Assembly (NCBI GenBank): GCA_947488155.1
Contig: CANKYK010000001.1
Span: forward strand, 1,194,439-1,258,438
Direction: 5' to 3'
Length of the DNA: 64,000 bases
Source: an uncultured Erythrobacter sp.
Lineage (GTDB): Bacteria > Pseudomonadota > Alphaproteobacteria > Sphingomonadales > Sphingomonadaceae
The notes beneath the pieces are model-generated. The model did no database searches, had not been told where the DNA came from, and worked only from the letters and a program-made list of their open reading frames with translations. Position numbers and translations under genes: made by a program. Every line of letters begins with the position of its first letter. Position 1 is the stretch's first letter. Positions 10,301 to 53,496 of the stretch are shown piece after piece.

Positions 10301-10391
10301 GGGTGCACTCGGATCCCGGATGGGATGCGGAACACAAATCAAAGAAAATGGTGCATGAGGCAGTCCACCTCTAACCCGTCTCTGGAAATTT

Positions 10392-10411
10392 AATCCCGTT
10401 TGAACGGGATT
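10392..10411. promoter_or_regulatory. 20-bp palindrome AATCCCGTT-TG-AACGGGATT
   Basis: Perfect 9-bp arms with a 2-nt spacer, at the left edge of the AT-rich block. It shares the ACGGGA(A)TT core with the downstream repeats. Confidence 0.6.
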
Positions 10412-10511
10412 CCCTGCCTGATCTCAATCATTGACGAGGGCCTCGCAGACGCACTTATCGTGCAATTGCAGAATCTTATCATTTAACTCAGGCTTTTTGC
10501 GAAATCACAAC

Positions 10512-10563
10512 ACGGGAATTCAATCGTTGCTCGACGGGAATTTTCTCAACGTGCACGGCAATT
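10512..10563 (+). repeat. Three phased direct repeats: ACGGGAATT, ACGGGAATT, ACGGCAATT
   Basis: Copies start at 10512, 10534 and 10555, spaced 22 and 21 bp apart (about two helical turns). They lie about 110 bp upstream of the ParB-methyltransferase gene. Confidence 0.6.
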
Positions 10564-10670
10564 GTGCTGACCACATCAGCCTAGCCGAAAACTAAATTTC
10601 TCATTTCAGCCTTACGGACCGATTTCCTTCGCGTCAGAATCACCTCTTTCGAGCAATTGAAAGGTGAAAC

Positions 10671-12002
10671 ATGACAACTCCCAAATCACTCAAGACAGAA
10701 CTCAAGGTCGAGTATCGTTCGATCGATAACCTTCACGAGAACCCGAACAACGCCAAGCTGCACCCCAAAGAACAGATTTCAAAAATCTGCCGTTCCATTG
10801 AGCAGTTTGGATTCCTTGTGCCGTTACTTGTTGATGGAGATGGCATGGTGCTTTGCGGGCACGGCCGATTGCAGGCAGCCAAGCAGCTAGGCGAGAAATC
10901 ACTCCCGGTAGTTTGTGTTGACCATCTCAGTGAGGCCGAACGCCGCGCATTTGTGATCGCCGACAATAAGCTTGCAGAGCAAGGCAAGTGGGACGAGGCC
11001 CAGTTAGCAATCGAATTCAACGCATTGCTCGAACTCGAGGATGAAATCGAGATCACCGATACAGCGTTTGAAATTGGCGAGATCGACTATTTGATTGAGA
11101 AGAGTCAGGACGATAGCGAACCTGAAGAGGAAAATTTCCTCGCCGCCGAGGTGGACCAGCTCTGCCAACTTGGCGATCTATGGCAACTCGGTAAACACAG
11201 ACTCTATTGCGGCGATGCGCTTGACCCAATGAGTTATGAGGTCCTGCTTGGTTCGGAGAAAGCGGCGATGGTGTTCACCGACCCGCCATACAACCTGCCT
11301 ATCGCCGGGGTCGCTTCCGGCAAAGGAAAGGTTCGGCATCAGGACTTTGTTCAAGCGAGCGGTGAGATGTCGCGAGCGAAGTTTGGAGAGTTCTTAGAGC
11401 GCTTCATCCAATGTTCGATCGCTTCGACCAAGGATGGAGCCATTCACTTCATTTGCATGGACTGGCGACAGATCGACCTCTTGGTCAGCATCGGTCGCCA
11501 GCGCTTCGAAGAGCTGAAGGCAATCTGCGTCTGGGATAAAGGCACAGGCTCGATGGGCTCGCTCTACCGCAGCCGCCATGAGTTCATCGCTGTCTTTAAG
11601 TCTGGCTCCGCTCCGCACATCAACAATATCGAACTGGGTCGTCACGGTAGAAACCGTTCGAACGTTTGGGCTTACCCAGGGATGGGATCATTTGGGAGGG
11701 GACGCTCCAAAGCACTGAGTTTCCATCCGACCGTCAAGAACTTGGAGATGGTGGCAGATGCCAACCTTGATTGTTCAAAACCGGGTGATCTGGTGCTTGA
11801 TCCATTCGCAGGATCGGGAACGACTGCCTTAGCTGCGCAGAGGACCAAGCGGCGAGCAGCATTGATCGAACTCGATCGACATTACTGCGACATTATCCTG
11901 CATCGCTTTCGTGAAGCGACGGGGATCGACCCAGTCAAAGTCAGTGAAGAGGAAGTCGCAAAGACATCGTCAGCTGCATCCACGGAGGCAGACAATGGAT
12001 AA
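10671..12002 (+). CDS. ParB-like nuclease domain fused to an N6-adenine/N4-cytosine DNA methyltransferase
   Basis: The N-terminus has the ParB/Srx-type segment ...LVDGDGMVLCGHGRLQAAKQLG. The MTase part has motif IV DPPYNL and the AdoMet motif DPFAGSGTT (beta-class order). Confidence 0.85.
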   Translation: MTTPKSLKTELKVEYRSIDNLHENPNNAKLHPKEQISKICRSIEQFGFLVPLLVDGDGMVLCGHGRLQAAKQLGEKSLPVVCVDHLSEAERRAFVIADNKLAEQGKWDEAQLAIEFNALLELEDEIEITDTAFEIGEIDYLIEKSQDDSEPEEENFLAAEVDQLCQLGDLWQLGKHRLYCGDALDPMSYEVLLGSEKAAMVFTDPPYNLPIAGVASGKGKVRHQDFVQASGEMSRAKFGEFLERFIQCSIASTKDGAIHFICMDWRQIDLLVSIGRQRFEELKAICVWDKGTGSMGSLYRSRHEFIAVFKSGSAPHINNIELGRHGRNRSNVWAYPGMGSFGRGRSKALSFHPTVKNLEMVADANLDCSKPGDLVLDPFAGSGTTALAAQRTKRRAALIELDRHYCDIILHRFREATGIDPVKVSEEEVAKTSSAASTEADNG

Positions 12003-12396
12003 CGAAGCGAGCGACGATACCGATTATGAGGTTGGCTACAAGAAGCCCCCGAAGATGTACCAGTTCAAGAAAGGGAACAGGGCAGCAGCGGGCAGGCGAA
12101 AGTCAAAGCAGCAGCAAAATACTGAAGAAATGTTGGCTAGGCTGTTCAATGAGAAGGTCACGGTTGCGCTTGAAGGCAAGAAGGTCCGAATGCCCTGGAA
12201 AGAGGCGATCATGAGAAGCCTCCTGAGTGAATCGCGAAAATCGACCCGAGACATGTTCCGTCTTTTAGAGTTGATGAGGGAGTTCCAGATCGATCTCGTT
12301 CACCCGGATACTGAAGTGGATAACCGGCCCAAGATCATATTGGAGTTTGTCGGCGATGACGTGAAACCAGTGCATGACACGTGTATCAAAGAGTAG
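11995..12396 (+). CDS. DUF5681-like small protein
   Basis: The ATG at 11995 overlaps the methyltransferase stop (ATGGATAA). The N-terminus, VGYKKPPKMYQFKKGNRAAAGRRK, resembles the DUF5681 signature. Confidence 0.55.
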   Translation: MDNEASDDTDYEVGYKKPPKMYQFKKGNRAAAGRRKSKQQQNTEEMLARLFNEKVTVALEGKKVRMPWKEAIMRSLLSESRKSTRDMFRLLELMREFQIDLVHPDTEVDNRPKIILEFVGDDVKPVHDTCIKE

Positions 12397-12425
12397 GCCA
12401 ACTATCCCTCGGATCAGCGCTACGC

Positions 12426-13277
12426 TCAGAGCTGACTGACGAGGTCAGCCTGTTCTTGCTCGATCTCTTCCACGAGCTCTGCTGCTCGAGCATCAAAGGC
12501 ACTCCGGGCCATATACTGGAGAGCGACATCCATACGATTGGTGCCAGTTCCAGAGCATTCCTGCGACCTTTGAAGATAGCTACTTCGGGCAATCTGATAC
12601 AGCGACCGAGCAAGCCGGTTGGCCGATCCAGGATAAGGAGGAGGACTCTCTGCCGAAAACGAGAGGGTCAAGAGAACCGCGATCCGTTGCGAAGCATAGA
12701 TCCGCGAGGTTTGAACGCTCTCTCCGCTACGCCGAGCTCTTCGGTTCGCGCGGGCGAGCTCAATTCGTCTGAATTCCTCTTCGAATATGGCCTCAGGATA
12801 TTTCGCTGAGAGACCTGCCGACACTTCGTCTAGCACCGTGACTGCATCGTTACTGCATTGATCAGTTGATGCGAGCCAGACCTGGTCGAGGAGTTTGCTT
12901 TTAAACCGTGGTTCGACCTTGAAGGGCATGCCCGCAATCTGAATCCCATCCGAACGGTATGATATTCTCACCTGGCTGGGATTATCGCTCGCTCTTCTTC
13001 GATAGAGTCTCGCCTTTGAGATTCCGGGAAGGACTCGGAGGATAGGCACAACCTCTTCCGGTGACATACCCACCCTGAGTTCTTGCCAAAGTGTCGGAGG
13101 CTCGGAAGAGTGAGTCTCTTCTCGGTCAACCGGCGCAACGTGCGAGCGTTCTAGGCTTTGCTCATCACTTTGCTGTTCGCGTGCGTGAGCATTTGGCGCG
13201 GCCAAAGTGAATGCAGAGCCCAAAGTGGCCACTAAGCCTAGCGCCAATATGCTCCTGCGGTTGCTTTTCGTAATCAT
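12426..13277 (-). CDS. Exported hypothetical protein
   Basis: 283-aa ORF with a Sec-type signal peptide (MITKSNRRSILALGLVATLGSAFTLAAPNAHA). I do not recognise a family. Confidence 0.5.
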   Translation of the reverse strand: MITKSNRRSILALGLVATLGSAFTLAAPNAHAREQQSDEQSLERSHVAPVDREETHSSEPPTLWQELRVGMSPEEVVPILRVLPGISKARLYRRRASDNPSQVRISYRSDGIQIAGMPFKVEPRFKSKLLDQVWLASTDQCSNDAVTVLDEVSAGLSAKYPEAIFEEEFRRIELARANRRARRSGESVQTSRIYASQRIAVLLTLSFSAESPPPYPGSANRLARSLYQIARSSYLQRSQECSGTGTNRMDVALQYMARSAFDARAAELVEEIEQEQADLVSQL

Positions 13278-13396
13278 CCATCACCCTCATGTCGCCAGTA
13301 AGTGACATCGACTACTGCTCGCTTCACTATTCCAGTCAAGTAAAATGTCACTCATCGTCTGTAGATTGATCGACGACACCCGTCTCAACTGCGCAC

Positions 13397-13600
13397 GTGG
13401 ATATTCGTCAGCGCCTCGCCGCAAATTTGCGCAAACTCCGTCTTGAAAAGGGCTGGAGTCAGGAGGAGTTCGCACACGAGGCTGATATCCATCGGACTTA
13501 CATCAGTGACCTTGAGCGCTCCGCGCGCAATCCATCGATCGAGATCATTGAGAGGTTAGCGAACACACTTGAGGTCAGAGCCGGTCAGTTGGTCGACTAA
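13397..13600 (+). CDS. XRE-family helix-turn-helix transcriptional regulator
   Basis: 67-aa ORF with a GTG start. LRKLRLEKGWSQEEFAHEADIHRTYISDLERSARNPSIEIIERLANTL is a classic Cro/C1 HTH. Confidence 0.8.
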   Translation: MDIRQRLAANLRKLRLEKGWSQEEFAHEADIHRTYISDLERSARNPSIEIIERLANTLEVRAGQLVD

Positions 13601-13717
13601 AGACCGGCTGCTGTCAGACACGAACTTCCATTGCACAAGCGTCAGCTTATGGGGGTGAAGGCGGACAGTTCAGCGATATCTCATTGTATAAATCTGCAGC
13701 CAAAGAGGTGCGACACA

Positions 13718-14743
13718 CTAGTCAGAGTTCTGCTCAGCCCCTTGACCTCTGGTTGTGGTCTCTAAAAACCGGAGTATCCGCGGCCACTGATCACGGCGAG
13801 CCGCCAAGTCTCCATTGGCATCCCCGCCCATACTTGCGAGCATCCGAGTGTCGCTTTCATCAAGATCGCTAGCGGGTCCAAAGGCCCAGTGTCCAGCATC
13901 GTCGTAAGCCAGCAATTCAATCGCAGCACCTTCTCTTTTTTCAACCTTTGCCTTGATTTCTTCAGCCATGCGGCAACCTGGCCAGAGCGTATCGTTCTTT
14001 CCGCAAATCAACAGAATTTGCGCCGTAGCTTTTTCAATTGGGATAAATGCCGACGGATGCTCTGTGGCGGCATCCCTACTACGTTTGAACATTTCTAGTC
14101 TCGGAGCATCTACCGTAAAATACTCATGCCAAGCGAGCGATTGATACGGTAAGTATGAGACCGGATCACCGCTTTCGCTCCACGAAGAACTGAACTGCGA
14201 CATATCGATGCTGTCAAAGTCGAACCCTTGCCAGATAACATCGCTAGGCATGGCCGCAACCACTGCTCCGACACGGGCGTCGCGCGTGGCTAGGAGCAAA
14301 GCACCTTCTGCCCCTTTTGAATGACCAATCACCGCAATCGGAACGGCGCGTACCTCTGGGTTGGAGCCTAGCCAATCAAGAGCGGCGTCAAAAGTTTCGA
14401 GCGGCACCATATTGAATGACCGATTGCTTTCCGAGGTAGCGTAATAGCTTTGATAAAGAACGGAGTAGCCCTCTTGTGCCAACTGCCTAGCAAAGACATT
14501 ACGGTACTCGCGCAGGCCGCCTTCCGAACCTCCGAGTAGCAAAATAGCCGGGCGTGGCCCGTCACCTAAACCTCGATAAAAATTGGCAGGCAAGCCATTG
14601 ACGGAGACGCGCTCACCTCCAACGCCCGCCTCTACTACGACGATCGGGCGCGGTTCCCTCGTGAACCAAGAATAGGCATTCACTCCAACGAAGACCAAGA
14701 TAACGGCCAGTAAACCAAGTCCAATCTTGTATCGACGCTTCAT
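13718..14743 (-). CDS. Membrane-anchored alpha/beta hydrolase (BAAT/acyl-CoA thioesterase C-terminal or dienelactone-hydrolase-like)
   Basis: N-terminal TM helix, nucleophile elbow GHSKGAE, and a late ...DDAGHW... segment. Confidence 0.65.
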   Translation of the reverse strand: MKRRYKIGLGLLAVILVFVGVNAYSWFTREPRPIVVVEAGVGGERVSVNGLPANFYRGLGDGPRPAILLLGGSEGGLREYRNVFARQLAQEGYSVLYQSYYATSESNRSFNMVPLETFDAALDWLGSNPEVRAVPIAVIGHSKGAEGALLLATRDARVGAVVAAMPSDVIWQGFDFDSIDMSQFSSSWSESGDPVSYLPYQSLAWHEYFTVDAPRLEMFKRSRDAATEHPSAFIPIEKATAQILLICGKNDTLWPGCRMAEEIKAKVEKREGAAIELLAYDDAGHWAFGPASDLDESDTRMLASMGGDANGDLAARRDQWPRILRFLETTTRGQGAEQNSD

Positions 14744-14788
14744 GCTGTATGCCTCTTGATTCGATTAATCTGATAAGCCTTAGGAAAC

Positions 14789-15580
14789 CTAGTATTCCGA
14801 ACCGGCATACTTTGCAGCGATTGTTGTTCTTGGAAAACGACCCGTAAGCATTAGCCGGGCTTTGTCAGAACAATTAGGCGCTGGCGTATGGAGCAGGCGC
14901 AAATCCATCAGGTACACATCACCAACGTTGCCGGAAAGCTCCACAATTTCAAGATCAACACCATGAACTGACCCTTTGGTTTCTGCGAGATTTGAGATTG
15001 GAGCGCGCTTGGGATCAAGCAGTGACTTGAAATAATGCTCCTTTTGCAGCTGGCTTTTAAGTTTCTTGGATGAGAGATCCGCGGCATTGTTTGCCAAACG
15101 ATGCGATCCCGCGATCACGAGGGTCGCCCCGCCTTTAGGTTCAACATCATCGAGAAATGTGAAAGCCTGCAAACCGGGCGAGGCCTTCTCGCCAATCTTG
15201 GGAAGGTCGATATGCCATGCGTCAGATGGAACCAACCAAGCATCCTCGCTCGGGAGGGAAAACAAGATTTGCTGGCCCGGTGAAAGCGGTGTTGCCGGTT
15301 GGCCAATTAACCGCTCAATCATGGGAGTTAGCTGAGCACCAATCAGGGTTGGAAATTCCTCCGCTCTGTTGAGCGTATTGAGGGCATTGCGAAATGGCTT
15401 CGGATATCCAAACCGACTTGGGGACTGCATCCAGCTTCCTGCCGAATAAATTCCATGTTCCTTCGCCAGATCAAGAACCATCTCGAACGCTTTTCGAGCT
15501 TCTTCAATTGGGACAACGCCCTCAAGTTTGATCAAGCCTCTTTCGTTCAATTCTCTCTCTAAATCGTCGAAGTGTTCCAT
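14789..15580 (-). CDS. Phytanoyl-CoA dioxygenase (PhyH)-like Fe(II)/2-oxoglutarate oxygenase
   Basis: 263-aa ORF with an HxD motif (AWHIDLP) and a distal His (GSHRL). Confidence 0.6.
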   Translation of the reverse strand: MEHFDDLERELNERGLIKLEGVVPIEEARKAFEMVLDLAKEHGIYSAGSWMQSPSRFGYPKPFRNALNTLNRAEEFPTLIGAQLTPMIERLIGQPATPLSPGQQILFSLPSEDAWLVPSDAWHIDLPKIGEKASPGLQAFTFLDDVEPKGGATLVIAGSHRLANNAADLSSKKLKSQLQKEHYFKSLLDPKRAPISNLAETKGSVHGVDLEIVELSGNVGDVYLMDLRLLHTPAPNCSDKARLMLTGRFPRTTIAAKYAGSEY

Positions 15581-15649
15581 CGGCTAGCGATTTACAGCAG
15601 GCTCCCAATGTCTGCAAATGGGTCGTTAGCAGAATGTCGGCTTCTAGCG

Positions 15650-16813
15650 CTACGTCTCGAAGAGCTGACTCTTTATCTCGGTTCCCACTGACTCAACGGT
15701 TTCTCGTAGGTAAGCATCATCCAGATGCGCGTATCTGGCGGTGGTTCTAACGTTGCTATGACCAAGCAAGCTGCCAATTATCGGGAGAGTTTCTGATGAT
15801 CTTGCAGCGAGGCTCGCATAGTTGTGTCTCAGGTCGTGCAATCTGACATCCTCGATGCCTGCTTCGACCCTCAGCATGCGCCAAAACCCTTCGATTTTAG
15901 AGACAGGCAGAATATCGAAGCGGAAAACTCGCTCGTGTTTCTTCGAGCGAGGGAAACCGTCAAGTATCGCCTTGGCCTCTTCACCAAGCCAAATGATACG
16001 GGACCCAGTCTTTGAATCGATCAGCTTGAGTTTGCGTCCCTGAACCTCGCCCCAAGTGAGATTGAGGATTTCGCCGCGCCGACATCCTGTCAAAGCGAGA
16101 AGCGAAATGACCGCCACCTCATTGGGCTTGTCGGCTCGATGCTGTGACAGGGCTTCTCCAAGACGGGCCATCTCGGCTTTGCTCAGAAAACGTTCGATCT
16201 TCCGCCCTTTGTTGCGCTTTACGCCACGAAAGGGATTGGAATGCTCTGGGAGATAGCCCCATGCTTCAGCCTTGCCGAACATGGCTTTTAGGATTTCCAT
16301 AGCGCGGTTGGCCGCGCCCGGTCCTGCCGAGCGCGTCAGCGTTGCGTGCCAGCGCACGGCATCAGCGTGCCTGATCTCGTCGATGAACTTTCCGGCGAAC
16401 GCATGTTCCAAGTGCGTTCGCCGATAGATGTCGTGTATCTCAAGCGTGGATGGCTTCCAGGTCGGAGCCGCCACCTCCCAATAGTGTCGAAGGAAGGAAG
16501 CGTAAGTCGGCGTCTTCTTCGCGCGTTGCTTCTTGTCCGCCGGATTCTGGCCCAGCTCGATCCTCAAGATTAGGCGGCGTGCAACATCCTTGGCGATACG
16601 CTCGGTTAGAATGGCAGCATCGCCGATTGTAATGAGCCTCTGCTTGCCGCCCATCGTGCGCTGCAGGACGTAACTCTTCCTGCCAGACGGATGGATACGC
16701 TCGCGAAAACCGGGAAGGACGTAATCGAACTTCGTGCGGCGCTTACCTGCATCACCCGGAACGATGCGCGCGAGCTCTTCGGCGAGGATACGTTTAAGGT
16801 CATAGCTGGTCAT
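15650..16813 (-). CDS. Tyrosine-type site-specific integrase (copy 2)
   Basis: Catalytic-domain motifs: ...LTGCRRGEIL..., HDLRHNYAS, LLGHSNVRTTARYAHL. Confidence 0.9.
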   Translation of the reverse strand: MTSYDLKRILAEELARIVPGDAGKRRTKFDYVLPGFRERIHPSGRKSYVLQRTMGGKQRLITIGDAAILTERIAKDVARRLILRIELGQNPADKKQRAKKTPTYASFLRHYWEVAAPTWKPSTLEIHDIYRRTHLEHAFAGKFIDEIRHADAVRWHATLTRSAGPGAANRAMEILKAMFGKAEAWGYLPEHSNPFRGVKRNKGRKIERFLSKAEMARLGEALSQHRADKPNEVAVISLLALTGCRRGEILNLTWGEVQGRKLKLIDSKTGSRIIWLGEEAKAILDGFPRSKKHERVFRFDILPVSKIEGFWRMLRVEAGIEDVRLHDLRHNYASLAARSSETLPIIGSLLGHSNVRTTARYAHLDDAYLRETVESVGTEIKSQLFET

Positions 16814-18054
16814 GCGGTCATCCCCATTGAGTTTGCGAGGCTGGAACAGATACGGTCGGCGCTTCTGGAAATGACCTCGTCCGCGAGATGCGCGTATCGT
16901 GCCGTCGTTTCGGGAAGCGCGTGACCGAGCAGCTTGCCAATCGTCGCAAGCGGTATCCCTTTCGCGATGGCCACAGAGGCAAAGCTGTGACGGAGATCAT
17001 GCAGGCGCACATCGGGCAAGGCGGCCTTGCGCCTGATTGTCGCCCAGTGCTGGCCCAGGTTGATCGGCACTTCGCGATACATTGCCGGGAAGACGAGCTG
17101 ATCGTCTCCGCGCCGTTGTAGCCCATTGAGCACAGCGATTGCCTGCGGGTTGAGATAGATCGTCTTTGGGCCGGTCTTGCTGTCAGGCAATGCGAGGCGG
17201 GGTATCTGGACGTAGCGCCAGCGCAATGTCGCAATCTCTGAAACCCGTGCGCCTGTATAGATCAGCATCAGGAGAGCTGGGACTACGAACGCATTGGTAC
17301 CGTCGTGCTCTGCCAGCACCTTACCGAGCCTTCGATATTCATCAGCTGACAGATAGCGTTCCGGCAGGTCCCGCTTAAAGCGAGAGACGCCGCGACAGGG
17401 GTTGGTGTTCTTCTCGCGATAGCCGAGTTTTTCGGCATATTGAATCATGACCGACATGACCGGGATGCTGCGATTGAAGGCTCCTCCCACGTCAGCCATG
17501 CTGTCTCGCCAGCGATTGATGTCAGCCCGTTCAATCGCGTCGACAGAGAGTGTTCCAAACCTTGGGATCAGCCGCTTGTCGATGCAAGCCCGCGAGGCAT
17601 CGCGCGTCGAAGGCTTCCAATGCGGCGAATAGTCGAGCCAGAACTCCTCAGCGTATTCTGAAAAGAGTGGGGCCCTTAGTTTCTCGGGAGCGGTCGGAAG
17701 GCCGACAAGAGTTGCCTTGATGAGCAATCTGCGCGCAGCAGCGCGCGCGGCTGGAGCGCTCAGCGCACCTGCCGCCACTCCCGCGCTTCCTAACGTCACC
17801 AATCGCTGCACGCCTCGCGGCCTATGCTTCACAATCCAGGTGAGGTGTCCCGACTTGCGCTTCCGAAGTCCGAAACCGGGAAGCTCTGTATCCCATGTGA
17901 TACCGATAGGAAGCGACTTTCGCCGGGCAACATGGCCGGTCAGTTTGAGGCGATGGGACTGCCTGCGGCGGGATACTGCTGTGCCTTGGCTACCACCTGA
18001 TTGCTCACCGCTGCCAACAAGCAATATCTTTGTTTCTTCGCGCTTTTTTGCCAC
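16810..18054 (-). CDS. Tyrosine-type site-specific integrase (copy 1)
   Basis: GTG start. Arm-binding-like N-terminus (LPGFGLRKRKSGHLTWIV), then YTGARVSEI, HDLRHSFAS, LLGHALPETTARYAHL. Its stop overlaps the start of copy 2 (ATGA). Confidence 0.9.
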   Translation of the reverse strand: MAKKREETKILLVGSGEQSGGSQGTAVSRRRQSHRLKLTGHVARRKSLPIGITWDTELPGFGLRKRKSGHLTWIVKHRPRGVQRLVTLGSAGVAAGALSAPAARAAARRLLIKATLVGLPTAPEKLRAPLFSEYAEEFWLDYSPHWKPSTRDASRACIDKRLIPRFGTLSVDAIERADINRWRDSMADVGGAFNRSIPVMSVMIQYAEKLGYREKNTNPCRGVSRFKRDLPERYLSADEYRRLGKVLAEHDGTNAFVVPALLMLIYTGARVSEIATLRWRYVQIPRLALPDSKTGPKTIYLNPQAIAVLNGLQRRGDDQLVFPAMYREVPINLGQHWATIRRKAALPDVRLHDLRHSFASVAIAKGIPLATIGKLLGHALPETTARYAHLADEVISRSADRICSSLANSMGMTA

Positions 18055-18313
18055 CCCATGCAGCTACCGCTGCGTAGGGTGAGCGTACTCAGCCATAGCT
18101 TCCGCTTTCGGCGTAGTTTAGAAGCCATCGGAATGTCCGAAATTGGAGCGCGAAGCGGACACCTAGAGCAGGTCAATAATTTCTGCGTGACTGGAAACCA
18201 CATACGCAGCCCCGCTTGCTTCTAGCCGGTTTGCCAAGCCGGCATCTGCATGGCTAAGCCAAACTCAGACTTTTGCTATAGGCCCTGACGAGGAACACAG
18301 GGCTACTCCTAAC

Positions 18314-18325
18314 TTAAACGTTTAA
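18314..18325. promoter_or_regulatory. Candidate LacI-family operator TTAAACGTTTAA (perfect palindrome)
   Basis: Lies 55 nt upstream of the 18380 ORF. Identical 12-mers occur at 25265 and 45501. Confidence 0.6.
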
Positions 18326-18379
18326 CTTATCTGAAGGGCACGCTAGAGGCAGCCCACTAAGACTAAGGGCAGACAGCAA

Positions 18380-18847: not shown

Positions 18848-18848
18848 A

Positions 18849-19874
18849 TTAGGCTGCTTGGGCTCCCGACACACGTCCGGGAAACGATCTGCGTACAGCA
18901 AGCTTCACCGGCAAGACAACGTCGTCGATCTTTGCTTCGGGATTTTCCATCCGTCGATTAAGAAGCCCAAAGGCTTCTCTTCCAAGGTCGCTGAGAGGCT
19001 GCGAGATTGTCGTCAATGGTGGGGATACGATGTCAGCAAACTGAATATCGCCGAAACCGGTTACCGCGATATCGTCGGGCACTTTCAGCCCGAGGGATGC
19101 AAGATAACGGATCGCCTCAATCGCGATCAAATCGTTTGGGCATACCAACACCTCAGCCTCAGATCTTGCCAGCCTGGCTAGAACGTTATCAGCTAGAGGT
19201 GGCGAGAAACTGTTTACCTCCTCCCAAACAACCTCAGCTTGCGGCCCAAGATTCTCTACAAATCCATCTCGCCGAAGGGACGCTGACCTGAAGTTTTCCG
19301 GTCCACGAACGAGCCCGACTTTCGTCCTCTCAGACTGATTGACCAAGCTCGCCAGCATTTTTCCTCCTACCCAGTGGTCGGAGGTAACCATATCGAATCC
19401 GTCGATTTTGGTGTCGACCAACACGGCGGGAACTGTGATGTCGGCAATCTTCTCACAATTTCCTGCGTGCGAGGGCCACCAAATAATTCCGTCGACACCT
19501 TGTTTCCCAAGACGATTGACCCCTTCAAACTCTCGCTGACTATCCCCATCGGAATCGAACAAAAGAACGCTCAGACCTTCGCCGCTCGCCGCCTGCTGGA
19601 CTGCTTTTGCAAATTGCGGAAAGAATGGGTTACTCAGGTCCGGCAAGACCAGTCCGACTGTATCCGTCTTTCCCGTCCGCATAGTTTGGGCGGACTTGCT
19701 TGGGCGGTATTGCAGCTTTTTGGCTACCGCCAGTATTCGCTCTCTAGTGGCTCGTCCGACACCTTCCCGACCGTTCAGAGCATAGGAAGCAGCGGCAATC
19801 GAAACATCAGCCTCACGCGCAACATCCTTGATTGAGGGTGGCTTGGTGCCAGTCTTCACCTTATTTTCCGGCAC
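18849..19874 (-). CDS. LacI-family transcriptional regulator
   Basis: N-terminal HTH (IKDVAREADVSIAAASYALNG...RERILAVAKKLQYRPS) followed by a periplasmic-binding-protein-like sugar-binding fold. Confidence 0.9.
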   Translation of the reverse strand: MPENKVKTGTKPPSIKDVAREADVSIAAASYALNGREGVGRATRERILAVAKKLQYRPSKSAQTMRTGKTDTVGLVLPDLSNPFFPQFAKAVQQAASGEGLSVLLFDSDGDSQREFEGVNRLGKQGVDGIIWWPSHAGNCEKIADITVPAVLVDTKIDGFDMVTSDHWVGGKMLASLVNQSERTKVGLVRGPENFRSASLRRDGFVENLGPQAEVVWEEVNSFSPPLADNVLARLARSEAEVLVCPNDLIAIEAIRYLASLGLKVPDDIAVTGFGDIQFADIVSPPLTTISQPLSDLGREAFGLLNRRMENPEAKIDDVVLPVKLAVRRSFPGRVSGAQAA

Positions 19875-22938: not shown

Positions 22939-25224
22939 TCAGAACTTGAATTCGGCTTCGACGCCCCAAATCCGGGGATCGTTGACGAAACCTGTAAGGT
23001 TGTTGAAATCGATCCCACCAATCAGATTTTCTTCATTGGTCAAGTTCCGCACAAAAGCAGCGATTTCAAAGCCATTGTCAAAATCGATGTATCCAGCGCG
23101 AAGGCCGACCTCGAAGTTGCCATTCACTTGGAATTCTTCCGATTCATAAAGGAAGAAGTTGGTGCGGCCGAGACGACTATAATCACCGAAGAGATATATC
23201 TCGCCGCCGCCAACCGGGATTGCATAGCGGCCCGTTGCCGTCAGAATTGTGCGAGGAGCCTGCGGAAACGGATTGCCGTCAATTGATGCACGCGTTGTCG
23301 TACCGACGGTCACTAGTGGATCGGTAACTGTGCAGCCCCCGCCGCAGAACGCAACGAGAAGATCATCGTCCTGAATTTCGGTATCGTTGAAACTATAGCC
23401 GAGAGACAGGTCGAGGTTGTCGACGGGGCTGAAATCGATGTCGAGTTCGAAACCCTGACCAACGCCCTTGTCCGCATTGATCAATTGGTTGAAATTCCCA
23501 AGGCCGCCGATCGCTGTAAATTGTTGGTCATCAACCTCATAGTAGAAACCAGCCAAATTGATTCTCAGTGCATTGTCGAGCAGCGAAGCCTTGACACCGG
23601 CGTCGAAAGAAATGACGTCTTCGCTATTTGCGACAGTCACGTTGTTGCTAAACACCAGACGCCCCTGGATCGACGGGCCGCGGAAGCCCGTCGCAACGCG
23701 TGAGAACAGAGTAACGCCTTCACTGATCTCATAGTTTAAAGCCAGATCCCAATTGATTGAGTCGTCTTGCGTTCTGGTTTCAGCGTTGATTGGGCCAAGG
23801 AACCCCAAGGGGCGTGTACCACGAAATACTTTTCGTTCGTCCGAATAACGAACACCGCCAGTCACAGTCAGAGCATCGGTAAGATCATAGCTTAGCTGAC
23901 CAAAAAAGGCGTACGCCTCGCTTTGCTGCGTCGTAATAGCAAGGATCGTTGGGTTCGGGTCTCCAGTACCGTTGAACGAGGCGCTATCGGCTGTGAACTC
24001 GTCCCAGAAGTAAAACGCACCGATTTGCCAGTTAAAGCGATCATTGCCGCTGTTAGAGACGCGAAACTCCTGAGTGAATTGCTCAACATCCGTGTCCAAG
24101 CTGCCAGTTTCGGAACGGAAGGGAATGAAACCCGGAAAAGAGGTCGCCCCCGTTCCGACACCGCCATCGATATCACCGACGCCGTCACTGTCTCCGACAT
24201 AATAGCCCGTCACAGAAGTCAACGTAACACTACCTGTATCGAGCTCATTACGCCAAGTTGCACCAAAGATTTCGGTATTGGATTCGTTGTTCCGACCACC
24301 GTCGAAGGCGACCTCAAAACGATCGAAGTTGTCGTTCAACTCGTTCGATCCCGGCGACAAAATATTCGCACGGAAAAGCGTCGTGGTGCCCCTGAGCCGC
24401 TGATATTGGAAAGTTAGGAGTGAAGAAAAGTCGAGAGCAGTGTCTGGCTCGAACAGCAAATGCGAACGCAATGCGACAGACGAGAACCCGCCCAGATCCG
24501 GTTCGCCATCATTGTTGCCAGCGAAGTCGGCACCAGGATTGACGTTCTCCACAAAGTCTGAGCGGCGAGTGTACTCACCGGCGACGCGAGCCGACAGGCT
24601 ATCGCTTAATGGTCCGCTAAGCGCCGCATTGAGCTTGACAGAATCGAAACGGCCATAGGAACCCGAGACATACCCCTCAAAAGACTGCGTGGGCTTCGCA
24701 GTATCGAACTTCACAATACCGGCTGGGGTATTCCGACCAAACAGCGTTCCCTGCGGTCCACGCAAAATCTCCGTTTGCGCAATATCGAATATGGGGAAAC
24801 CTTTCAGCAAGACGTTTTCGAGAACCACCTCGTCAGAAATAATCGAGACAGGCTGAGATGCAGATAGATCAAAGTCGACGTTGCCCAAGCCACGAACGTA
24901 GAACCTTGGTGCCGTGCGACCACTCGAACCCTCGACATACAGGCTAGGTACGCGTGCCGAGAGGCCGCGAATATCCGCGCCTGCATCAAGTATGGAAGAC
25001 AGCTTTTCTTCTGAAACCGTCGCAACGGAAATCGGAACGTCGAGAATATTCTGCGCACGCTTTTGGGCCGTCACAATGATAACCCCGGAATCTTCTGGAT
25101 CACCTTGTTCAGCCTCCACACTTGACTCGGCGTTCTGGGCCGATGCTGGATTAACCAGTCCAGCCGCCATCATCAACGCAGCAGCGCAAGATGAATATTT
25201 CAACAAAGCAGTTTTACGAGACAT
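22939..25224 (-). CDS. TonB-dependent outer-membrane receptor
   Basis: Signal peptide, plug region (VIIVTAQKRAQNILDVPISV), a long beta-barrel and a terminal aromatic residue (...AEFKF). The start is trimmed to ATG at 25224, which has GGGAGG 6 nt upstream. Confidence 0.9.
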   Translation of the reverse strand: MSRKTALLKYSSCAAALMMAAGLVNPASAQNAESSVEAEQGDPEDSGVIIVTAQKRAQNILDVPISVATVSEEKLSSILDAGADIRGLSARVPSLYVEGSSGRTAPRFYVRGLGNVDFDLSASQPVSIISDEVVLENVLLKGFPIFDIAQTEILRGPQGTLFGRNTPAGIVKFDTAKPTQSFEGYVSGSYGRFDSVKLNAALSGPLSDSLSARVAGEYTRRSDFVENVNPGADFAGNNDGEPDLGGFSSVALRSHLLFEPDTALDFSSLLTFQYQRLRGTTTLFRANILSPGSNELNDNFDRFEVAFDGGRNNESNTEIFGATWRNELDTGSVTLTSVTGYYVGDSDGVGDIDGGVGTGATSFPGFIPFRSETGSLDTDVEQFTQEFRVSNSGNDRFNWQIGAFYFWDEFTADSASFNGTGDPNPTILAITTQQSEAYAFFGQLSYDLTDALTVTGGVRYSDERKVFRGTRPLGFLGPINAETRTQDDSINWDLALNYEISEGVTLFSRVATGFRGPSIQGRLVFSNNVTVANSEDVISFDAGVKASLLDNALRINLAGFYYEVDDQQFTAIGGLGNFNQLINADKGVGQGFELDIDFSPVDNLDLSLGYSFNDTEIQDDDLLVAFCGGGCTVTDPLVTVGTTTRASIDGNPFPQAPRTILTATGRYAIPVGGGEIYLFGDYSRLGRTNFFLYESEEFQVNGNFEVGLRAGYIDFDNGFEIAAFVRNLTNEENLIGGIDFNNLTGFVNDPRIWGVEAEFKF

Positions 25225-25264
25225 TTCATTCCTCCCTAAGCTTTCCATACAATCAAACTTTTAG

Positions 25265-25276
25265 TTAAACGTTTAA
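25265..25276. promoter_or_regulatory. Candidate LacI-family operator TTAAACGTTTAA
   Basis: Perfect palindrome 41 nt upstream of the TonB-dependent receptor start. Confidence 0.6.
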
Positions 25277-28003: not shown

Positions 28004-28015
28004 TTAATCGTTTCA
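28004..28015. promoter_or_regulatory. Degenerate operator-like site TTAATCGTTTCA (10 of 12 matches to TTAAACGTTTAA)
   Basis: In the divergent region between amn and the HAD-phosphatase gene, 49 nt upstream of the latter. Confidence 0.4.
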
Positions 28016-35989: not shown

Positions 35990-36001
35990 TTAAACGTTTC
36001 A
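35990..36001. promoter_or_regulatory. Candidate LacI-family operator TTAAACGTTTCA (11 of 12)
   Basis: In the divergent hiuH / puuE control region, 61 nt from hiuH and 48 nt from puuE. Confidence 0.55.
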
Positions 36002-44587: not shown

Positions 44588-44976
44588 AGAAGCTGACGCC
44601 AATGAAAACTGGGGTGACGATTGCCTTGCTCAGCATGTCGGCAAGCGGGGCTGCGCATGAAGGCCATCAGCTCGCTGATCATACTCTCGTGAGCGGACTC
44701 TTACATCCTCTAACCGGTATCGCACATCTTGTCGGACTACTGGGTTTAGGCGGCGTGATTGGGGTTGCGAGCGCGCTATGGTTGCGAGAGGAATCAGATC
44801 TGCTCCCGATTCTGTTACTCTCGGTGGCTTGTCTTGTCCTGTCAGTGGGTAAGGCCAATGGAGCCTTTGCTATAGGTTTCTTTGCATCAAGCCTCTTGCT
44901 GTCGGGCGTCGCTTACGCGCTTGGCAAATTCCTGACTAAGAAGAGTTCAGGTTGGCAACGATCCCGCAAGTTCTGA
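44584..44976 (+). CDS. HupE/UreJ-family (nickel-related) membrane protein, short form
   Basis: The GTG start overlaps the ureG stop. A signal peptide is followed by AHEGH...[12 protein letters not shown]. At 130 aa it is shorter than typical family members. Confidence 0.55.
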
Positions 44977-45471
44977 TGCTTCAATACACACTTTCTGATC
45001 ATTGAGGAGGAGCACCTCCTCGCAGTCTTCTTCTCGTGCAACTCGGTCGATAACTAGGAAATCACTAGTCTCGCCGAGCGCCAAACAAAAATGGTGCCAA
45101 GTGCCAGCCGAAAACTGGACACCCTGGCTGCCCTTCGCAGCGAACACGCGAATGCTATCGCTATCAAGATCGCCAGCAGGTGCGACGACCACCAGAAAGG
45201 GATTGCCACTAAGTGGCACAAAGGCTTGCGAACCCTGTCGATGCCTTTCCATTGTCTCGACGATGAAAGGCAAGGAGCGTGGTTTGGCACGGTAAATATG
45301 GATTGCCGCGTGGCCGGACCCGCGCCCGCAATCAGGCCGCGCAAGTTCTACAAACTTCAGACACGTGCCGTTGTTGATGATGGAAGCGGACGATTCATCA
45401 CCCGCTTCAATCACGTCTCCAAAGGGGTGAAACGCATCATCGGTCAACTGCTCTACGGGAATTGCCTTCAT
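44947..45471 (-). CDS. allA: Ureidoglycolate lyase
   Basis: 174-aa ORF. The N-terminus ...LTDDAFHPFGDVIEA... and a cupin-like body resemble AllA. Confidence 0.8.
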   Translation of the reverse strand: MKAIPVEQLTDDAFHPFGDVIEAGDESSASIINNGTCLKFVELARPDCGRGSGHAAIHIYRAKPRSLPFIVETMERHRQGSQAFVPLSGNPFLVVVAPAGDLDSDSIRVFAAKGSQGVQFSAGTWHHFCLALGETSDFLVIDRVAREEDCEEVLLLNDQKVCIEASELAGSLPT

Positions 45472-45500
45472 CTACTTTACCTCTTTCCATTCATTCTTGC

Positions 45501-45512
45501 TTAAACGTTTAA
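45501..45512. promoter_or_regulatory. Candidate LacI-family operator TTAAACGTTTAA
   Basis: Perfect palindrome in the divergent allA / tkt region, 30 nt from allA and 39 nt from tkt. Confidence 0.6.
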
Positions 45513-45550
45513 CTAAAGCTAGGCCAGAGAGAATTCTGAAAGGAGTAGGG

Positions 45551-50318: not shown

Positions 50319-50697
50319 ACCAGGAGGAAAAACGACAACCGAGCAGTTGAGACAAGAACTCGATAGGCTTGCTGAGCTTCAAGGCGCTCTTGGGAAAAAT
50401 GAGGCGCGGGACGATGAGGGTTTTCGTAGGGAGTTGACCGCACTTCGCCGAGAAGCGTGGGAAACTATCTTTCAAATACAAAAGACCGCCGATCAGTATT
50501 TCAGGGAGCTAGGAAATACCGAGCTTTACAAAGAGTTCAAGACAAGATTTCAACACATGAAGGACGCCGTCTTCGATCATCAAGCAAAGTGGCGCGGCCT
50601 CGATGTCGATCACAACAGCCCCAGTTATCAAGAGTCTGTCAGGAAGGTCATCAAGGCAAACAAAGAATTCACTGGTTGGGCAAAGACAAAATTCTGA
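50308..50697 (+). CDS. Hypothetical helical protein, overlapping the glcB stop
   Basis: 129-aa ORF whose ATG lies 8 nt before the glcB stop codon. It is charged and helical and I do not recognise a family. Confidence 0.4.
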   Translation: MGAEPGGKTTTEQLRQELDRLAELQGALGKNEARDDEGFRRELTALRREAWETIFQIQKTADQYFRELGNTELYKEFKTRFQHMKDAVFDHQAKWRGLDVDHNSPSYQESVRKVIKANKEFTGWAKTKF

Positions 50698-51158
50698 ACT
50701 CACTAGTCAAGTGCCAAAGAAACAACGCAAGTCGAAGATACAAAATATCCTGGGAGCCTAAACTCGCGGAGTGATCCTTGCAACGGTTCTAATGTCTGCA
50801 ATACGAGTACCAACCGCTTGAAGGTTCTGTCGCATTTCAGTCATTGCGCGATAGATTGAGCAGCGGCAGCTAAGGTTGCGATCTTTGTTGAAACGTTAGC
50901 CAGTTCGTTGATGGCTGCCTTTCTTTCGTCACCCAATGAGCCGCCAATCGTTAGTGCCAGCGCGCTGTGGTCTTCCATCAACATACCGACCTTGGTGCAA
51001 AGCAGGCTGATAAGTTCGCGGTCAATGTCATCCATAAGCGCGGTAGTGCTCGAACTTCAGCACAAGTCCACTGCAAAGAGCACATGTACGCAGAAAGCAC
51101 TCGACTAGTGCGAGAAGTCGAGCATTCATGCCCGTGCTCAATGGCACGGAGAAGAATA

Positions 51159-51605
51159 ATGAGCTTGGATATGAACATTGATGCACTGCGATCAATGAAC
51201 GCGGCAGAGCTGCGCAATACTTGGCGCTCGATCATGAAAGACGTGGATCCCGATATTAGCCCAAGCTTAATGCGCTATGCGATTGCACAGCGCCTGCAAG
51301 AAAAGCAGCACGGCAGATTGTCACCAACCCACATGCGCCGCATCAATCGGCTACAAAAACAATTGATCGACAAAGGAACTATCGAACCCGCTCGCTCAGT
51401 GCAGCTCATGCCAGGAACTCAGCTGCTGAGGAAATGGGGAGGTGTGACCCATGTTGTTCTCGTTCTTGACAATGCGTTTGAATACCGCGGGAAGCGATAT
51501 TCTAGCCTGACGCAAATTGCTGAATCCGTTACCGGCGCGCATTGGTCAGGGCCGCGGTTCTTCGGCATCAGGAAGCGATCGAAGAGGCCCTTGCAAGATG
51601 GATAG
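51159..51605 (+). CDS. DUF2924-domain protein
   Basis: The start is trimmed to ATG at 51159 with a GGAGAAG Shine-Dalgarno sequence. ELRNTWRSIM...SPSLMRYAIAQRLQEKQHGRLS matches the DUF2924 signature. It overlaps the recombinase start. Confidence 0.75.
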   Translation: MSLDMNIDALRSMNAAELRNTWRSIMKDVDPDISPSLMRYAIAQRLQEKQHGRLSPTHMRRINRLQKQLIDKGTIEPARSVQLMPGTQLLRKWGGVTHVVLVLDNAFEYRGKRYSSLTQIAESVTGAHWSGPRFFGIRKRSKRPLQDG

Positions 51606-53211
51606 GTCAAAGAAACTTCGCTGCGCCATCTACACACGCAAATCAACCGAAGAAGGGCTAGAGCAGGAGTTCAACAGCTTGGATGCACAGCGCGAATCCT
51701 GCGCCGCCTACATACTTAGTCAGGCGCACGAAGGCTGGGGGAACATGCCTGAGCTTTATGATGATGGCGGTTATAGCGGTGGAAACATGAATAGGCCTGG
51801 CCTCGCCCAACTGATGCTCGATGTAAAAGCCGGGAAGATCGATGTTATCGTAGTCTATAAGGTAGACCGTTTAACGCGCTCGCTAGCCGACTTTGCCAAG
51901 ATCGTCGAAATCCTGGATGATGCCGGCGCAAGCTTTGTCAGCGTGACCCAGGCTTTTAACACCACTAGCAGTATGGGCCGGCTGACGCTTAACGTTCTGC
52001 TATCATTTGCGCAGTTCGAACGCGAAGTCACAAGTGAACGCATTCGAGACAAATTTGCTGCTTCAAAGAAGAAGGGCATGTGGATGGGCGGCTCAATTCC
52101 GTTTGGCTACCGGCTTGAGAAACGCAAGCTTCTGATTGATGTAGAAGAGGCAGAAAAGGTGCGGCACATTTTTCGCCGCTACGCCGCACTCAATTCAATC
52201 CCCCAGCTCCAACTAGAGCTCAAGAACGCGGGCTATCGAACAAGAAGCCGAGCACTAAAGACCGGCCAAACTATAGGCGGCGTTGAGTTTGGCACTGGCG
52301 CACTTGCCTACATGCTCAAGAACCCTGTCTACATCGGAAAAACCGCCCACCAAGGTAGCCTCTACGACGGCGAGCACAACGCTATCATTGACCAAGAACT
52401 GTTTGATGAAGTCCAGGCGATCACCAAATCAAACTGCCATGATGCCATGCTTGGAAAACGAGCCGCCAATCCAAGTCTTCTAACTGGCATGCTGCTGGAT
52501 CCCGATGGCAACGCTATGTCCCCTGTTCAGGCGCGCAAGAAAGACAGGCGTTACCGTTATTACGCCACCCGTGTCGATCTGATTGATCCTCATTCTAAAG
52601 CTTGGAGAACCTCCGCAGGGCCTCTTGAGAAGATCGTTATCGCTGAATTGGCAGCGGCCCTCGAAAACCCCGACCTGCGGTATGCGAATGATATCCGCCT
52701 GCAGGACCAATTGCGCGAAGCACAACAGATAGCGAACAAGCTTCGATCATCTGGAATAGTGGCGCAGCGCAGCATTCTGATGGACCTGAAAACAATCGCG
52801 GCCATCAGCGAAGAAAAACTTACGCTATCCTACGAATGTCCCATTGCGCGCGAAGTGCGACATCTCGTCGTCAACGCCAACTTAGCACAAAAAGGAAGCA
52901 ATATTCGCATCCTTCCTAGCAAATCAGGAAACGGGGCCGATAGCGCTGCGGATACCGGATTGCTTGAGCTTATCGCCAAGGCATTCGCAGCGCGGCAGCA
53001 CCTCTTTGAGGCAAAACCAAACCCTATCGTAGAAGACTTTAGTAGGCGCCATCAGATACGCCTCGCTCGGCTAAGTTGCCTTTCGCCCGAAATCATCGCA
53101 GCGATCTTATCTGGCAAACAGCCAGCAACAATGACCGCACGCAGTTTGCTTCGCATTGGAACCTTGCCGCTTTGTTGGAATGAGCAAAATAAGCAACTCG
53201 GCTTCTCCTAA
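51598..53211 (+). CDS. Large serine recombinase (resolvase domain plus recombinase domain plus C-terminal extension)
   Basis: CAIYTRKSTEEGLEQEFNSLDAQRE contains the catalytic Ser region. It is followed by VVYKVDRLTRSL and a recombinase domain (GGSIPFGYR...); about 537 aa. Confidence 0.92.
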   Translation: MDRSKKLRCAIYTRKSTEEGLEQEFNSLDAQRESCAAYILSQAHEGWGNMPELYDDGGYSGGNMNRPGLAQLMLDVKAGKIDVIVVYKVDRLTRSLADFAKIVEILDDAGASFVSVTQAFNTTSSMGRLTLNVLLSFAQFEREVTSERIRDKFAASKKKGMWMGGSIPFGYRLEKRKLLIDVEEAEKVRHIFRRYAALNSIPQLQLELKNAGYRTRSRALKTGQTIGGVEFGTGALAYMLKNPVYIGKTAHQGSLYDGEHNAIIDQELFDEVQAITKSNCHDAMLGKRAANPSLLTGMLLDPDGNAMSPVQARKKDRRYRYYATRVDLIDPHSKAWRTSAGPLEKIVIAELAAALENPDLRYANDIRLQDQLREAQQIANKLRSSGIVAQRSILMDLKTIAAISEEKLTLSYECPIAREVRHLVVNANLAQKGSNIRILPSKSGNGADSAADTGLLELIAKAFAARQHLFEAKPNPIVEDFSRRHQIRLARLSCLSPEIIAAILSGKQPATMTARSLLRIGTLPLCWNEQNKQLGFS

Positions 53212-53421
53212 CAGCATTTCCAAATAACCACAGTCTAGCAAATGGGATCCGACTTTTGGAACCTCAGAGAAACGCGCCGATAATCACGTCATTCGCGAGC
53301 CTCAAAGGCGTCTCTTGCAAATTGCACGGCTGTTTGAATCCACGTAACCTGCTGAAATAACGCCATAATAGACGTGCTCACCGCTATGGTTCTGGCGTTG
53401 GCCAGCTTCAGGTTTTGTGAA

Positions 53422-53496
53422 TGGTGCCACGAGAGAGAATTGAACTCTCGGCCTCGTCATTACCAATGACGCGCTCTACCACTGAGCTACCGCGGC
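53422..53496 (-). tRNA. tRNA-Thr (anticodon GGU)
   Basis: The reverse complement folds by hand into a cloverleaf: acceptor GCCGCGG/TCGTGGC, D arm GCTC-AGTGGTA-GAGC, anticodon arm CGTCA-TTGGTAA-TGACG, T arm GAGAG-TTCAATT-CTCTC, and an encoded CCA; 75 nt. Confidence 0.9.

Follow-up and report, generated by a model that had tools for sequence, protein, structure and literature searches.

A 43-kb island at a tRNA-Thr 3' end carries a predicted nucleoside and purine regulon and a large serine recombinase in an uncultured Erythrobacter

The window analysed here, a 64,000-nucleotide stretch from an uncultured Erythrobacter sp. (GCA_947488155.1, contig CANKYK010000001.1, positions 1,194,439 to 1,258,438), holds a block of atypical DNA that ends at a tRNA gene. 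An earlier note, made from the sequence without database searches, had proposed this block as a probable genomic island. We conclude with good confidence that it is a horizontally acquired integrative island of 43,073 bp, which sits at the extreme 3' end of tRNA-Thr(GGU), carries a catabolic cargo regulon and was probably integrated by its own large serine recombinase (LSR). An empty site in a relative, a repeat at both borders, a recombinase gene near one of them and atypical composition, i.e. the features of an integrative island at a tRNA gene, were all found. The empty site, the foreign composition, the flanking repeat and the coherence of the cargo bear out the earlier proposal.

Borders of the island and the empty site

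GC content is 0.598 (positions 1-10346) and 0.602 (53428-64000) in the two flanks versus 0.541 in positions 10355-53419. The difference lies mainly at third codon positions, where GC (GC3) is 0.65-0.78 (about 0.70) in the flank genes and 0.50-0.68 (about 0.57) in the genes of the block. The tetranucleotide profile, normalised for GC and computed in 5-kb windows, changes at the same two borders as GC. The sole host-like stretch within the block, at 16-18 kb (GC 0.57-0.60), holds two tyrosine integrase genes. The AT-richer block of about 43 kb that had been noticed at the outset is thus confirmed as a compositional step in GC, GC3 and tetranucleotides.

According to ARAGORN the window includes a single tRNA gene, an intact tRNA-Thr(GGU) (GGT in the gene; 53422-53496, minus strand), which is the proposed integration target. 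The block does end at this gene, whose 3' end points toward it and faces a DUF2924 gene and an LSR gene, as the earlier note had described and as ARAGORN and Pfam confirm. The octamer AATGGTGC is found at 10347-10354 and again at 53420-53427, where it covers the last 6 nt of the tRNA and 2 nt beyond. Alone it is not significant, with five copies in the window versus 2.4 expected; its meaning as a border repeat comes from a three-way comparison with an empty site and not from the 8-mer itself. The earlier note had named the two copies and set them aside as too short to prove anything. Their positions and their weakness when taken alone stand, and the dismissal does not, since the empty-site comparison makes the 8-mer the true junction.

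The gpmA product was used as a query, with one genome per species, which gave 80 loci and placed the window in the Erythrobacteraceae. In none of these 80 species loci do the 10 kb upstream of gpmA hold an island gene, and all 80 species lack the block at this place. Each of the 28 relatives scanned for tRNA genes has a tRNA-Thr(GGT) gene just upstream of gpmA, and in many genera the genes pepN...g7624(-g8234) stand directly beside it. Homology between the window and the relatives' loci ends at 10290-10309 and restarts at 53419-53422. The closest comparison is offered by a sister species found via protein-cluster look-ups (locus L173; contig CANMOQ010000002.1 of GCA_947499505.1), whose flanks are 86-95% nucleotide-identical to those of the window and which has no match to the island. 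Here the empty SDR/tRNA-Thr junction that the earlier note had proposed to look for is present: the order is pepN...acyl-CoA dehydrogenase-SDR-46 nt-AATGGTGC/tRNA-Thr(GGT)-gpmA-purEK, with nothing between. L173 carries AATGGTGC once, at 8839-8846, with the tRNA 3' end formed by the final six bases of this copy. The block is an insertion relative to this otherwise colinear sister genome.

These comparisons place the borders at 10347/10355 on the left, 46 nt past the SDR stop and not at the stop, and at 53419/53427 on the right. At the left junction of the window, 46 nt with the A-rich trailer character seen in L173 separate the SDR stop from AATGGTGC, after which unrelated DNA begins; leftward of this copy, the attachment (att) core of attL (10347-10354), lies the host trailer of the tRNA, and rightward the island starts. 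At the right junction island DNA meets AATGGTGC (the attR core, 53420-53427), which is followed by the remainder of tRNA-Thr. With the same 8-mer on both sides of the insert, the island is 43,073 bp long and the 8-mer is the att core. The crossover therefore lies inside, or borders on, a stretch made up of the final 6 nt of the tRNA gene and 2 nt more. A general repeat search of 9-55 kb found no border repeats and no insertion sequence elements, only the operator palindrome described below. A search of the window for longer tRNA fragments (blastn-short, word 7) found none at the left border, the sole match being a 15-mer at 15545-15559.

In other relatives the neighbourhood of tRNA-Thr holds 3-7 kb of unrelated DNA between SDR and tRNA, and tRNA-Thr at this locus is a family-wide hotspot. 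One locus (L069) contains a 30-bp tRNA fragment. In another Erythrobacter metagenome-assembled genome (L013, 3049-9721) there is a tandem arrangement at the same tRNA-Thr: the last 70 bp of a related LSR gene are followed by a spacer 78% identical to that of the window and by a 45-bp displaced tRNA-Thr fragment that ends in the anticodon loop, and a later insertion of 6.2 kb parts the LSR remnant and the tRNA fragment from the intact tRNA-Thr. The 6.2-kb block has no recombinase and encodes an oxidoreductase, a DUF417 protein, two TetR proteins and a PNPOx protein. A 448-aa open reading frame (ORF) beside the tRNA fragment, considered as an integrase, is actually a pyridine-nucleotide disulphide oxidoreductase.

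The DUF2924-LSR pair and the mode of integration

Three recombinase genes had been counted in the block, and all three are confirmed: two tyrosine integrases, Int1 and Int2, and the LSR. The LSR gene (51598-53211, plus strand) ends 211 bp from tRNA-Thr and is the nearest of the three to a border. Its 537-aa product is full length, annotated homologues having 535-540 aa, and includes the catalytic and recombinase domains of a serine integrase (Pfam Resolvase, 5.8e-37, residues 10-162; Recombinase, 6.6e-15, residues 183-278), with a YTRKST motif near the N-terminus. It also matches PHROG 95, integrase, and over residues 419-536 PHROG 14161, 'recombinase'. The gene is preceded, with an 8-bp overlap, by one for a DUF2924 protein (51162-51605, plus strand; Pfam 8e-40, PHROG 11806). 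The spacer from the LSR stop to the tRNA (53212-53419), which forms the P arm of attR, is absent from the empty-site genomes. A terminator and promoter scan around this module gave nothing above background.

Of 85 related loci that were checked, 67 have DUF2924 ahead of the LSR; the DUF2924 family counts 6134 cluster representatives at 50% identity. A DUF2924 profile search against PDB sequences gave no match. A single-sequence AlphaFold model of the protein had a predicted local distance difference test score of 43 and was not used for a fold search. In the library of papers searched, DUF2924 came up in just three, all of them on Wolbachia phage WO.

Pairs of this kind repeatedly adjoin tRNA genes elsewhere. 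Of 61 assessable metagenomic DUF2924-LSR loci, 17 have a tRNA gene on the opposite strand no more than 450 bp downstream; in these 17 it starts 187-390 bp past the LSR stop and has its 3' end toward the LSR. When the LSR is at least 48% identical to that of the window, the proportion is nine of ten loci. The targets are Thr(GGT) (three loci), Thr(TGT), Thr(CGT) (two), Phe, Leu, Arg (three), Gln (three) and Ser (three). tRNA-Thr(GGT) is again the partner in L081, L082 and L092, and in L162, where the LSR is 57% identical and the flanking genes differ, it lies 211 bp downstream. A DUF2924 profile scan of viral contigs recovered the same arrangement in 8 of 47 assessable cases. From tRNA density we roughly estimate the chance of such a downstream tRNA at a fraction of a percent per locus. 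In L126 a 3.1-kb DUF3489-DUF2924-LSR unit is found between a displaced fragment of 37-43 bp, from a tRNA-Ser 3' end, and an intact tRNA-Ser. L013, with its LSR remnant, spacer and displaced tRNA-Thr fragment, and the phage AcaML1 described below also favour the LSR as integrase. Because DUF2924-LSR pairs elsewhere so often adjoin tRNA 3' ends, the LSR is the most likely integrase of the island, an assignment from sequence that we hold to be likely.

A mechanism can be proposed with attP and attB reconstructed from attL, attR and the empty site. A circular form with attP (...GGTTTTGTG-AATGGTGC-ATGAGGCAG...) would have recombined with attB (...AGAGAAG-AATGGTGC-CACGAGAG...). The enzyme would be the island LSR, encoded 211 bp from attR and presumably co-expressed with DUF2924. 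The crossover would occur inside the 8-bp core, and the tRNA would therefore stay intact. Upon excision, the predicted attP junction of the circle would read GTTTTGTGAATGGTGCATGAGGCAG (in longer form ...CAGGTTTTGTGAATGGTGCATGAGGCAGTCC...) and the restored attB ...ATCAAAGAAAATGGTGCCACGAGAGAG.... For serine integrases, small att sites around a central dinucleotide suffice (PMC1470463), so that a repeat as short as 8 bp would be expected. The island carries no transfer genes of its own: Pfam revealed no type IV secretion, coupling protein or relaxase genes among the likely-gene ORFs of at least 100 aa in 10.3-53.4 kb. Either it is mobilised in trans, or it derives from a larger element and is now stranded.

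Several observations weigh against this account. The role of the LSR is argued from its position and from the family-wide association, two intact tyrosine integrases are also on the island, and an identical core of 8 bp suits a tyrosine recombinase too. The reconstructed attP and attB have no clear dyad symmetry (at best 11 of 22 positions). The C-terminal half of the LSR gave no Pfam zinc-ribbon recombinase match at E<=0.01, and on reading the usual cysteines are absent. Among more distant DUF2924-LSR loci, 43 of 51 are without a downstream tRNA, and tRNA targeting would therefore be limited to some clades. No far end was found within 10 kb for other LSR elements at Thr(GGT) (L081, L092, L162). 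Finally, the function of the cargo is predicted from family membership.

Other features of these modules were observed in passing. A small DUF3489 gene often precedes the DUF2924-LSR pair (L162, L164, L126), making a three-gene module; the island of the window is without it and has about 430 bp of non-coding DNA in its place. A short block just after the LSR stop (window 53143-53260), AAATGGGATCCGACTTTTGG, is conserved with LSR loci that are only 53% identical; in L081, L082 and L092 it has the form AAAGTGGTGCCACGAAATTGG and resembles a tRNA 3' end. Beside the LSR-associated tRNA-Thr(CGT) of two loci (L087, 3332-3530; L088, 3936-4134), 39 nt from the 5' half of this tRNA are repeated about 85 bp further on.

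The cargo regulon and its second vehicle

The cargo occupies 32.4 kb (18313-50729; Pfam and NCBIfam). Its genes encode, in order, YdcZ, a LacI-family regulator, NupC, PhoD, a TonB-dependent receptor (22939-25248), a PfkB kinase and AMP nucleosidase; a DUF2608 protein, a PRTase, the urate oxidase PuuD, XdhCBA, HIU hydrolase and the allantoinase PuuE; OHCU decarboxylase, allantoicase, adenosine deaminase and UreDABCEFGJ; and ureidoglycolate lyase, transketolase (tkt), FSA/transaldolase (fsa/tal), GlcB and a 129-aa hypothetical protein. The nucleoside, purine, urea and glyoxylate gene list drawn up earlier was confirmed with Pfam, NCBIfam and PHROGs except for one assignment: ureidoglycolate lyase is encoded at 44947-45471 on the minus strand (Pfam PF04115, 3.5e-53; NCBIfam) and not by the plus-strand ORF 45091-45504. 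The view that this is a coherent catabolic pathway and not the usual phage content also holds, with no capsid, tail, terminase or lysis genes in the block by Pfam or PHROGs. Phage-family matches are limited to the methylase, DUF5681, XRE and integrase genes described below.

By family membership, one gene is present for each of the seven steps from purine to glyoxylate. PuuD matches Urate_ox_N at 1e-125, PuuE matches TIGR03212 above its cut-off, and the HIU hydrolase belongs to the transthyretin/HIUase type. The roles in the pathway were assigned from established knowledge of these enzyme families. Extracellular nucleotides and nucleosides would enter via PhoD, the TonB receptor and NupC, and AMP nucleosidase and adenosine deaminase would free the bases. 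Xdh, PuuD, HIU hydrolase, OHCU decarboxylase, PuuE, allantoicase and ureidoglycolate lyase would then convert the purine ring to glyoxylate and two molecules of urea. Urease would release ammonia from the urea, malate synthase G would capture the glyoxylate, and transketolase with FSA/transaldolase would take up ribose-5-phosphate.

The regulator of the cargo is presumed to be the LacI-family repressor (18849-19874, minus strand), which comes closest to RbsR, UriR and CytR, repressors of the ribose and nucleoside type. An operator-like palindrome, TTAAACGTTTAA, occurs at five sites (18314-18325, 25265-25276, 28004-28015, 35990-36001 and 45501-45512), four of them with at most one mismatch (0.03 expected) and all five with at most two (0.63 expected); the site at 35990 has one mismatch and that at 28004 two. 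All are in intergenic or promoter regions of the cargo, i.e. upstream of ydcZ, upstream of the TonB receptor gene and in the divergent promoters of amn/DUF2608, HIUase-xdh/puuE and allA/tkt. We infer that the cargo is one LacI-repressed regulon with putative operators, for scavenging extracellular nucleotides and nucleosides.

The same cargo is found in another Erythrobacter genome, GCA_947488325.1 (contig CANKYZ010000001.1; L174, L169, L171), where it is colinear at 93-95% nucleotide identity and has end points equal to window 18313 and 50729. The operator-like site at 18314 is the final conserved element at the left end of the common segment. On the LacI side, the cargo of GCA_947488325.1 is flanked by a DUF2490 gene, a P4-like tyrosine integrase gene and tRNA-Leu(TAA); this integrase is about 29-30% identical to Int1 and Int2. 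On the other side are a gene for a LysR protein and the trb operon for transfer (DUF2274, TrbI, G, F, L, K, J, E, D, C, B). In this genome the regulon is therefore within a Trb-type conjugative element at tRNA-Leu. The two vehicles share the same 32.4-kb regulon, gene order and end points, and differ in that the Trb-type element has its own integrase and transfer genes, neither of which is on the island of the window. The 94% identity of the cargo does not by itself indicate recent transfer, since its meaning depends on the kinship of the two genomes.

In GCA_947488325.1 the gene call for the urease alpha subunit gives a protein of 431 aa without the N-terminal domain, beside a 115-aa ORF on the opposite strand (L169, 1365-3012; L171, 788-2435), which could reflect a frameshift, pseudogenisation or an assembly error. 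Orthologues of the TonB receptor with 71-81% identity occur in other Erythrobacter genomes (L166, L167, L168) without purine genes and isolated in unrelated contexts, e.g. between ybeY and phoH. They had been followed as a lead to relatives of the island and, standing alone as they do, were given up as such; the regulon was evidently assembled from parts.

Mosaic structure, alternative histories and known systems

The island is a mosaic of four modules, namely a left arm (10355-15609, GC 0.522), the two tyrosine integrases (15610-18084, 0.574), the cargo (18313-50729, 0.544) and the recombinase module with the LSR (50730-53419, 0.517). A plasmid collection held no close relative of the island, only scattered similarity to ureC and glcB at 72-77%, and we found no description of this island in the literature.

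The left arm begins with a fusion of a ParB-N domain and an N6/N4 DNA methyltransferase (10671-12002, plus strand; Pfam N6_N4_Mtase 5e-27, PHROG 498 1.7e-111), a gene of mobile-element type. It is followed by a small DUF5681-like protein gene (11911-12396, plus strand; Pfam PF18932, borderline at 28.6 bits versus a cut-off of 27.5), a hypothetical gene with no family match (12426-13277, minus strand) and an XRE/Cro-type HTH regulator gene (13397-13600, plus strand; Pfam HTH_3 8.8e-17). The exact ParB-methylase protein and the hypothetical protein are known only from this genome. The arm closes with genes for a BAAT-type alpha/beta hydrolase (13718-14743, minus strand; Pfam) and a PhyH-family dioxygenase (14789-15580, minus strand; Pfam), a pair that has homologues of at least 90% identity in two other uncultured Erythrobacter genomes.

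Int1, which has a P4-like arm domain (15650-16813, minus strand; Pfam), and Int2 (16810-18054, minus strand; Pfam) overlap by 4 bp. The stretch 15610-18084, i.e. the two integrase genes with about 35 bp on each side, is 91.3% nucleotide-identical to 8730-11205 of a 21-kb locus of GCA_947502395.1 (L175), where it closes an island of defence genes (NERD, MZB, helicases, TerB-UvrD, NOV_C) and where no tRNA was found in the 21 kb. Int2-Int1 thus behaves like a portable 2.5-kb two-recombinase module.

The 15-nt exact match to the tRNA-Thr T-arm (15545-15559; E=0.005-0.007) lies 50-65 bp past the end of the module homology at 15610. It is about 90 bp beyond the point where Int1 stops and falls within the start of the PhyH ORF. 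It was considered as a left-border tRNA fragment and rejected for its orientation, opposite to that of the tRNA gene; it also lacks the acceptor end. It is probably chance or a decayed relic, and could be what is left of an att site of the integrase module.

Of the alternatives to a single integration by the LSR, the one that survives best, quite unlikely in our judgement, is assembly on site: a small DUF2924-LSR element would have come first, and the other three modules would have been inserted later and separately. Such a history would fit the different GC contents of the four modules and their distinct relatives (the cargo in the conjugative element at tRNA-Leu, Int2-Int1 in the defence island, BAAT-PhyH in other genomes). 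It would fit, too, the existence of minimal LSR elements (L126) and the use of tRNA-Thr as a hotspot, with the tandem in L013, the fragment in L069 and other DNA between SDR and tRNA. The junctions between the modules, however, have no copy of the att core and no tRNA fragment at any of them, and the mosaic could equally predate a single integration, having been built in earlier hosts. Assembly on site would, moreover, change neither the outer borders nor the part played by the LSR, and refines the integrative island proposed here without replacing it.

It is very unlikely that Int1 and/or Int2 integrated the island, with AATGGTGC as the overlap region and the DUF2924-LSR pair as a passenger or remnant. 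Both integrases are full length, the arm-binding domain of Int1 is of the P4 type typical of tRNA-targeting integrases, and tyrosine recombinases need a core of 6-8 identical bp; the pair is a portable module that ends another island in L175, and the T-arm match is close to it. Yet Int1 and Int2 are at neither border, attL being 5.3-7.7 kb and attR 35 kb away, the module adjoins no tRNA in L175, and the T-arm match has the features for which it was rejected above. The GC of the pair is host-like, unlike the rest of the island, which suggests a separate, later arrival. Being internal, host-like in GC and not linked to a tRNA in L175, the tyrosine pair is the less likely integrase, whereas the LSR occupies the stereotyped place of its family beside the tRNA.

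That the block is ancestral and was lost from relatives with no horizontal gain is hardly credible, even with different species as the closest comparators (flanks 86-95% identical), given a locus without the block in 80 species and in L173, a precise 8-bp flanking repeat that occurs once only in the empty site, GC 6 points lower than in the flanks, three recombinase genes and the same cargo at another tRNA in another element.

That tRNA genes harbour genomic and catabolic islands is textbook matter, and the integrative island with a probable LSR integrase described here is a new, well-delimited example. It resembles classical tRNA islands (P4-like, Islander/TIGER; ICEclc) in its place at a tRNA 3' end, the intact tRNA, the direct repeat, the atypical GC, the recombinase gene at the tRNA-proximal border and the diet-widening cargo. 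Classical islands have a tyrosine integrase and a repeat of 15-80 bp made of a tRNA fragment, whereas this island has an LSR with DUF2924 and a repeat of 8 bp. Less ordinary are the serine integrase at a tRNA border, DUF2924 as its constant partner and the regulon in two vehicles.

According to the paper on Islander, no serine integrase was known to use tRNA genes as targets (PMC4383910). Tycheposon-like elements and, implicitly, the Acidithiobacillus phage AcaML1 are later exceptions to this statement. AcaML1 has DUF2924 (Gp4) and a serine recombinase (Gp3/Gp2) at the end of its genome, and is reported in a tRNA-like gene, that for transfer-messenger RNA (tmRNA, 'srrA'), with 10-bp repeats (PMC3826726). 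It differs in being a 59-kb tailed prophage of another bacterial class with a cargo of phage genes; its DUF2924 is 33% identical to that of the island, and its recombinase is annotated as two ORFs. Prochlorococcus tycheposons are likewise site-specific elements at tRNA genes with nutrient-acquisition cargo, and 27 of 937 tycheposon-like elements encode an LSR instead of a tyrosine recombinase (bioRxiv 10.1101/2020.12.28.424599). They are defined in cyanobacteria and many have replication genes (primase, helicase), which the island does not have.

With Bxb1, phiC31 and relatives, the LSR shares the Resolvase and recombinase domains and a gene beside the att site; a short core common to attP and attB is also seen in characterised serine integrases (PMC1470463). 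The known examples have protein-coding or intergenic targets and no constant upstream partner. The island LSR, unlike them, has no detected zinc-ribbon, and its gene is overlapped by that for DUF2924.

We see even chances for a broader proposal, in which DUF2924-LSR pairs would form a large and mostly uncharacterised serine-integrase family with several clades specific for the 3' ends of tRNA or tmRNA genes (Thr, Ser, Gln, Arg, Phe, Leu), DUF2924 would be obligatory for targeting or directionality, and in Sphingomonadales such pairs would be interchangeable docking units that take entire metabolic regulons out of conjugative elements and park them at tRNA genes. If true, this tRNA specificity goes against the older rule that only tyrosine integrases use such genes, and the interest of the island would rise if the specificity and the role of DUF2924 were demonstrated. 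The reconstructed sites offer a concrete attB/attP pair and a compact two-gene module for testing the tRNA specificity of serine integrases. The case bears on island-finding software that assumes tyrosine integrases at tRNA genes and on efforts to find new integrases whose landing sites are ready-made and conserved. In terms of physiology, a whole nutritional trait would move as a unit: nucleosides and purines would be taken up and broken down, under the trait's own regulation, as far as central metabolism and ammonia. In marine Erythrobacter this one 32-kb regulon is carried by two vehicles at two tRNA genes, and heterotrophs living on dissolved organic nitrogen and extracellular DNA could acquire the ability in a single step.

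Outside the island, just upstream of the gpmA coding region, the window has a 31-nt inverted repeat (53777-53853; 97% complementary, 15-nt loop). It sits inside a longer ORF first taken for gpmA and is kept in L173 at about 9196-9270. Possible identities are a terminator, a REP-like element and a regulatory structure.

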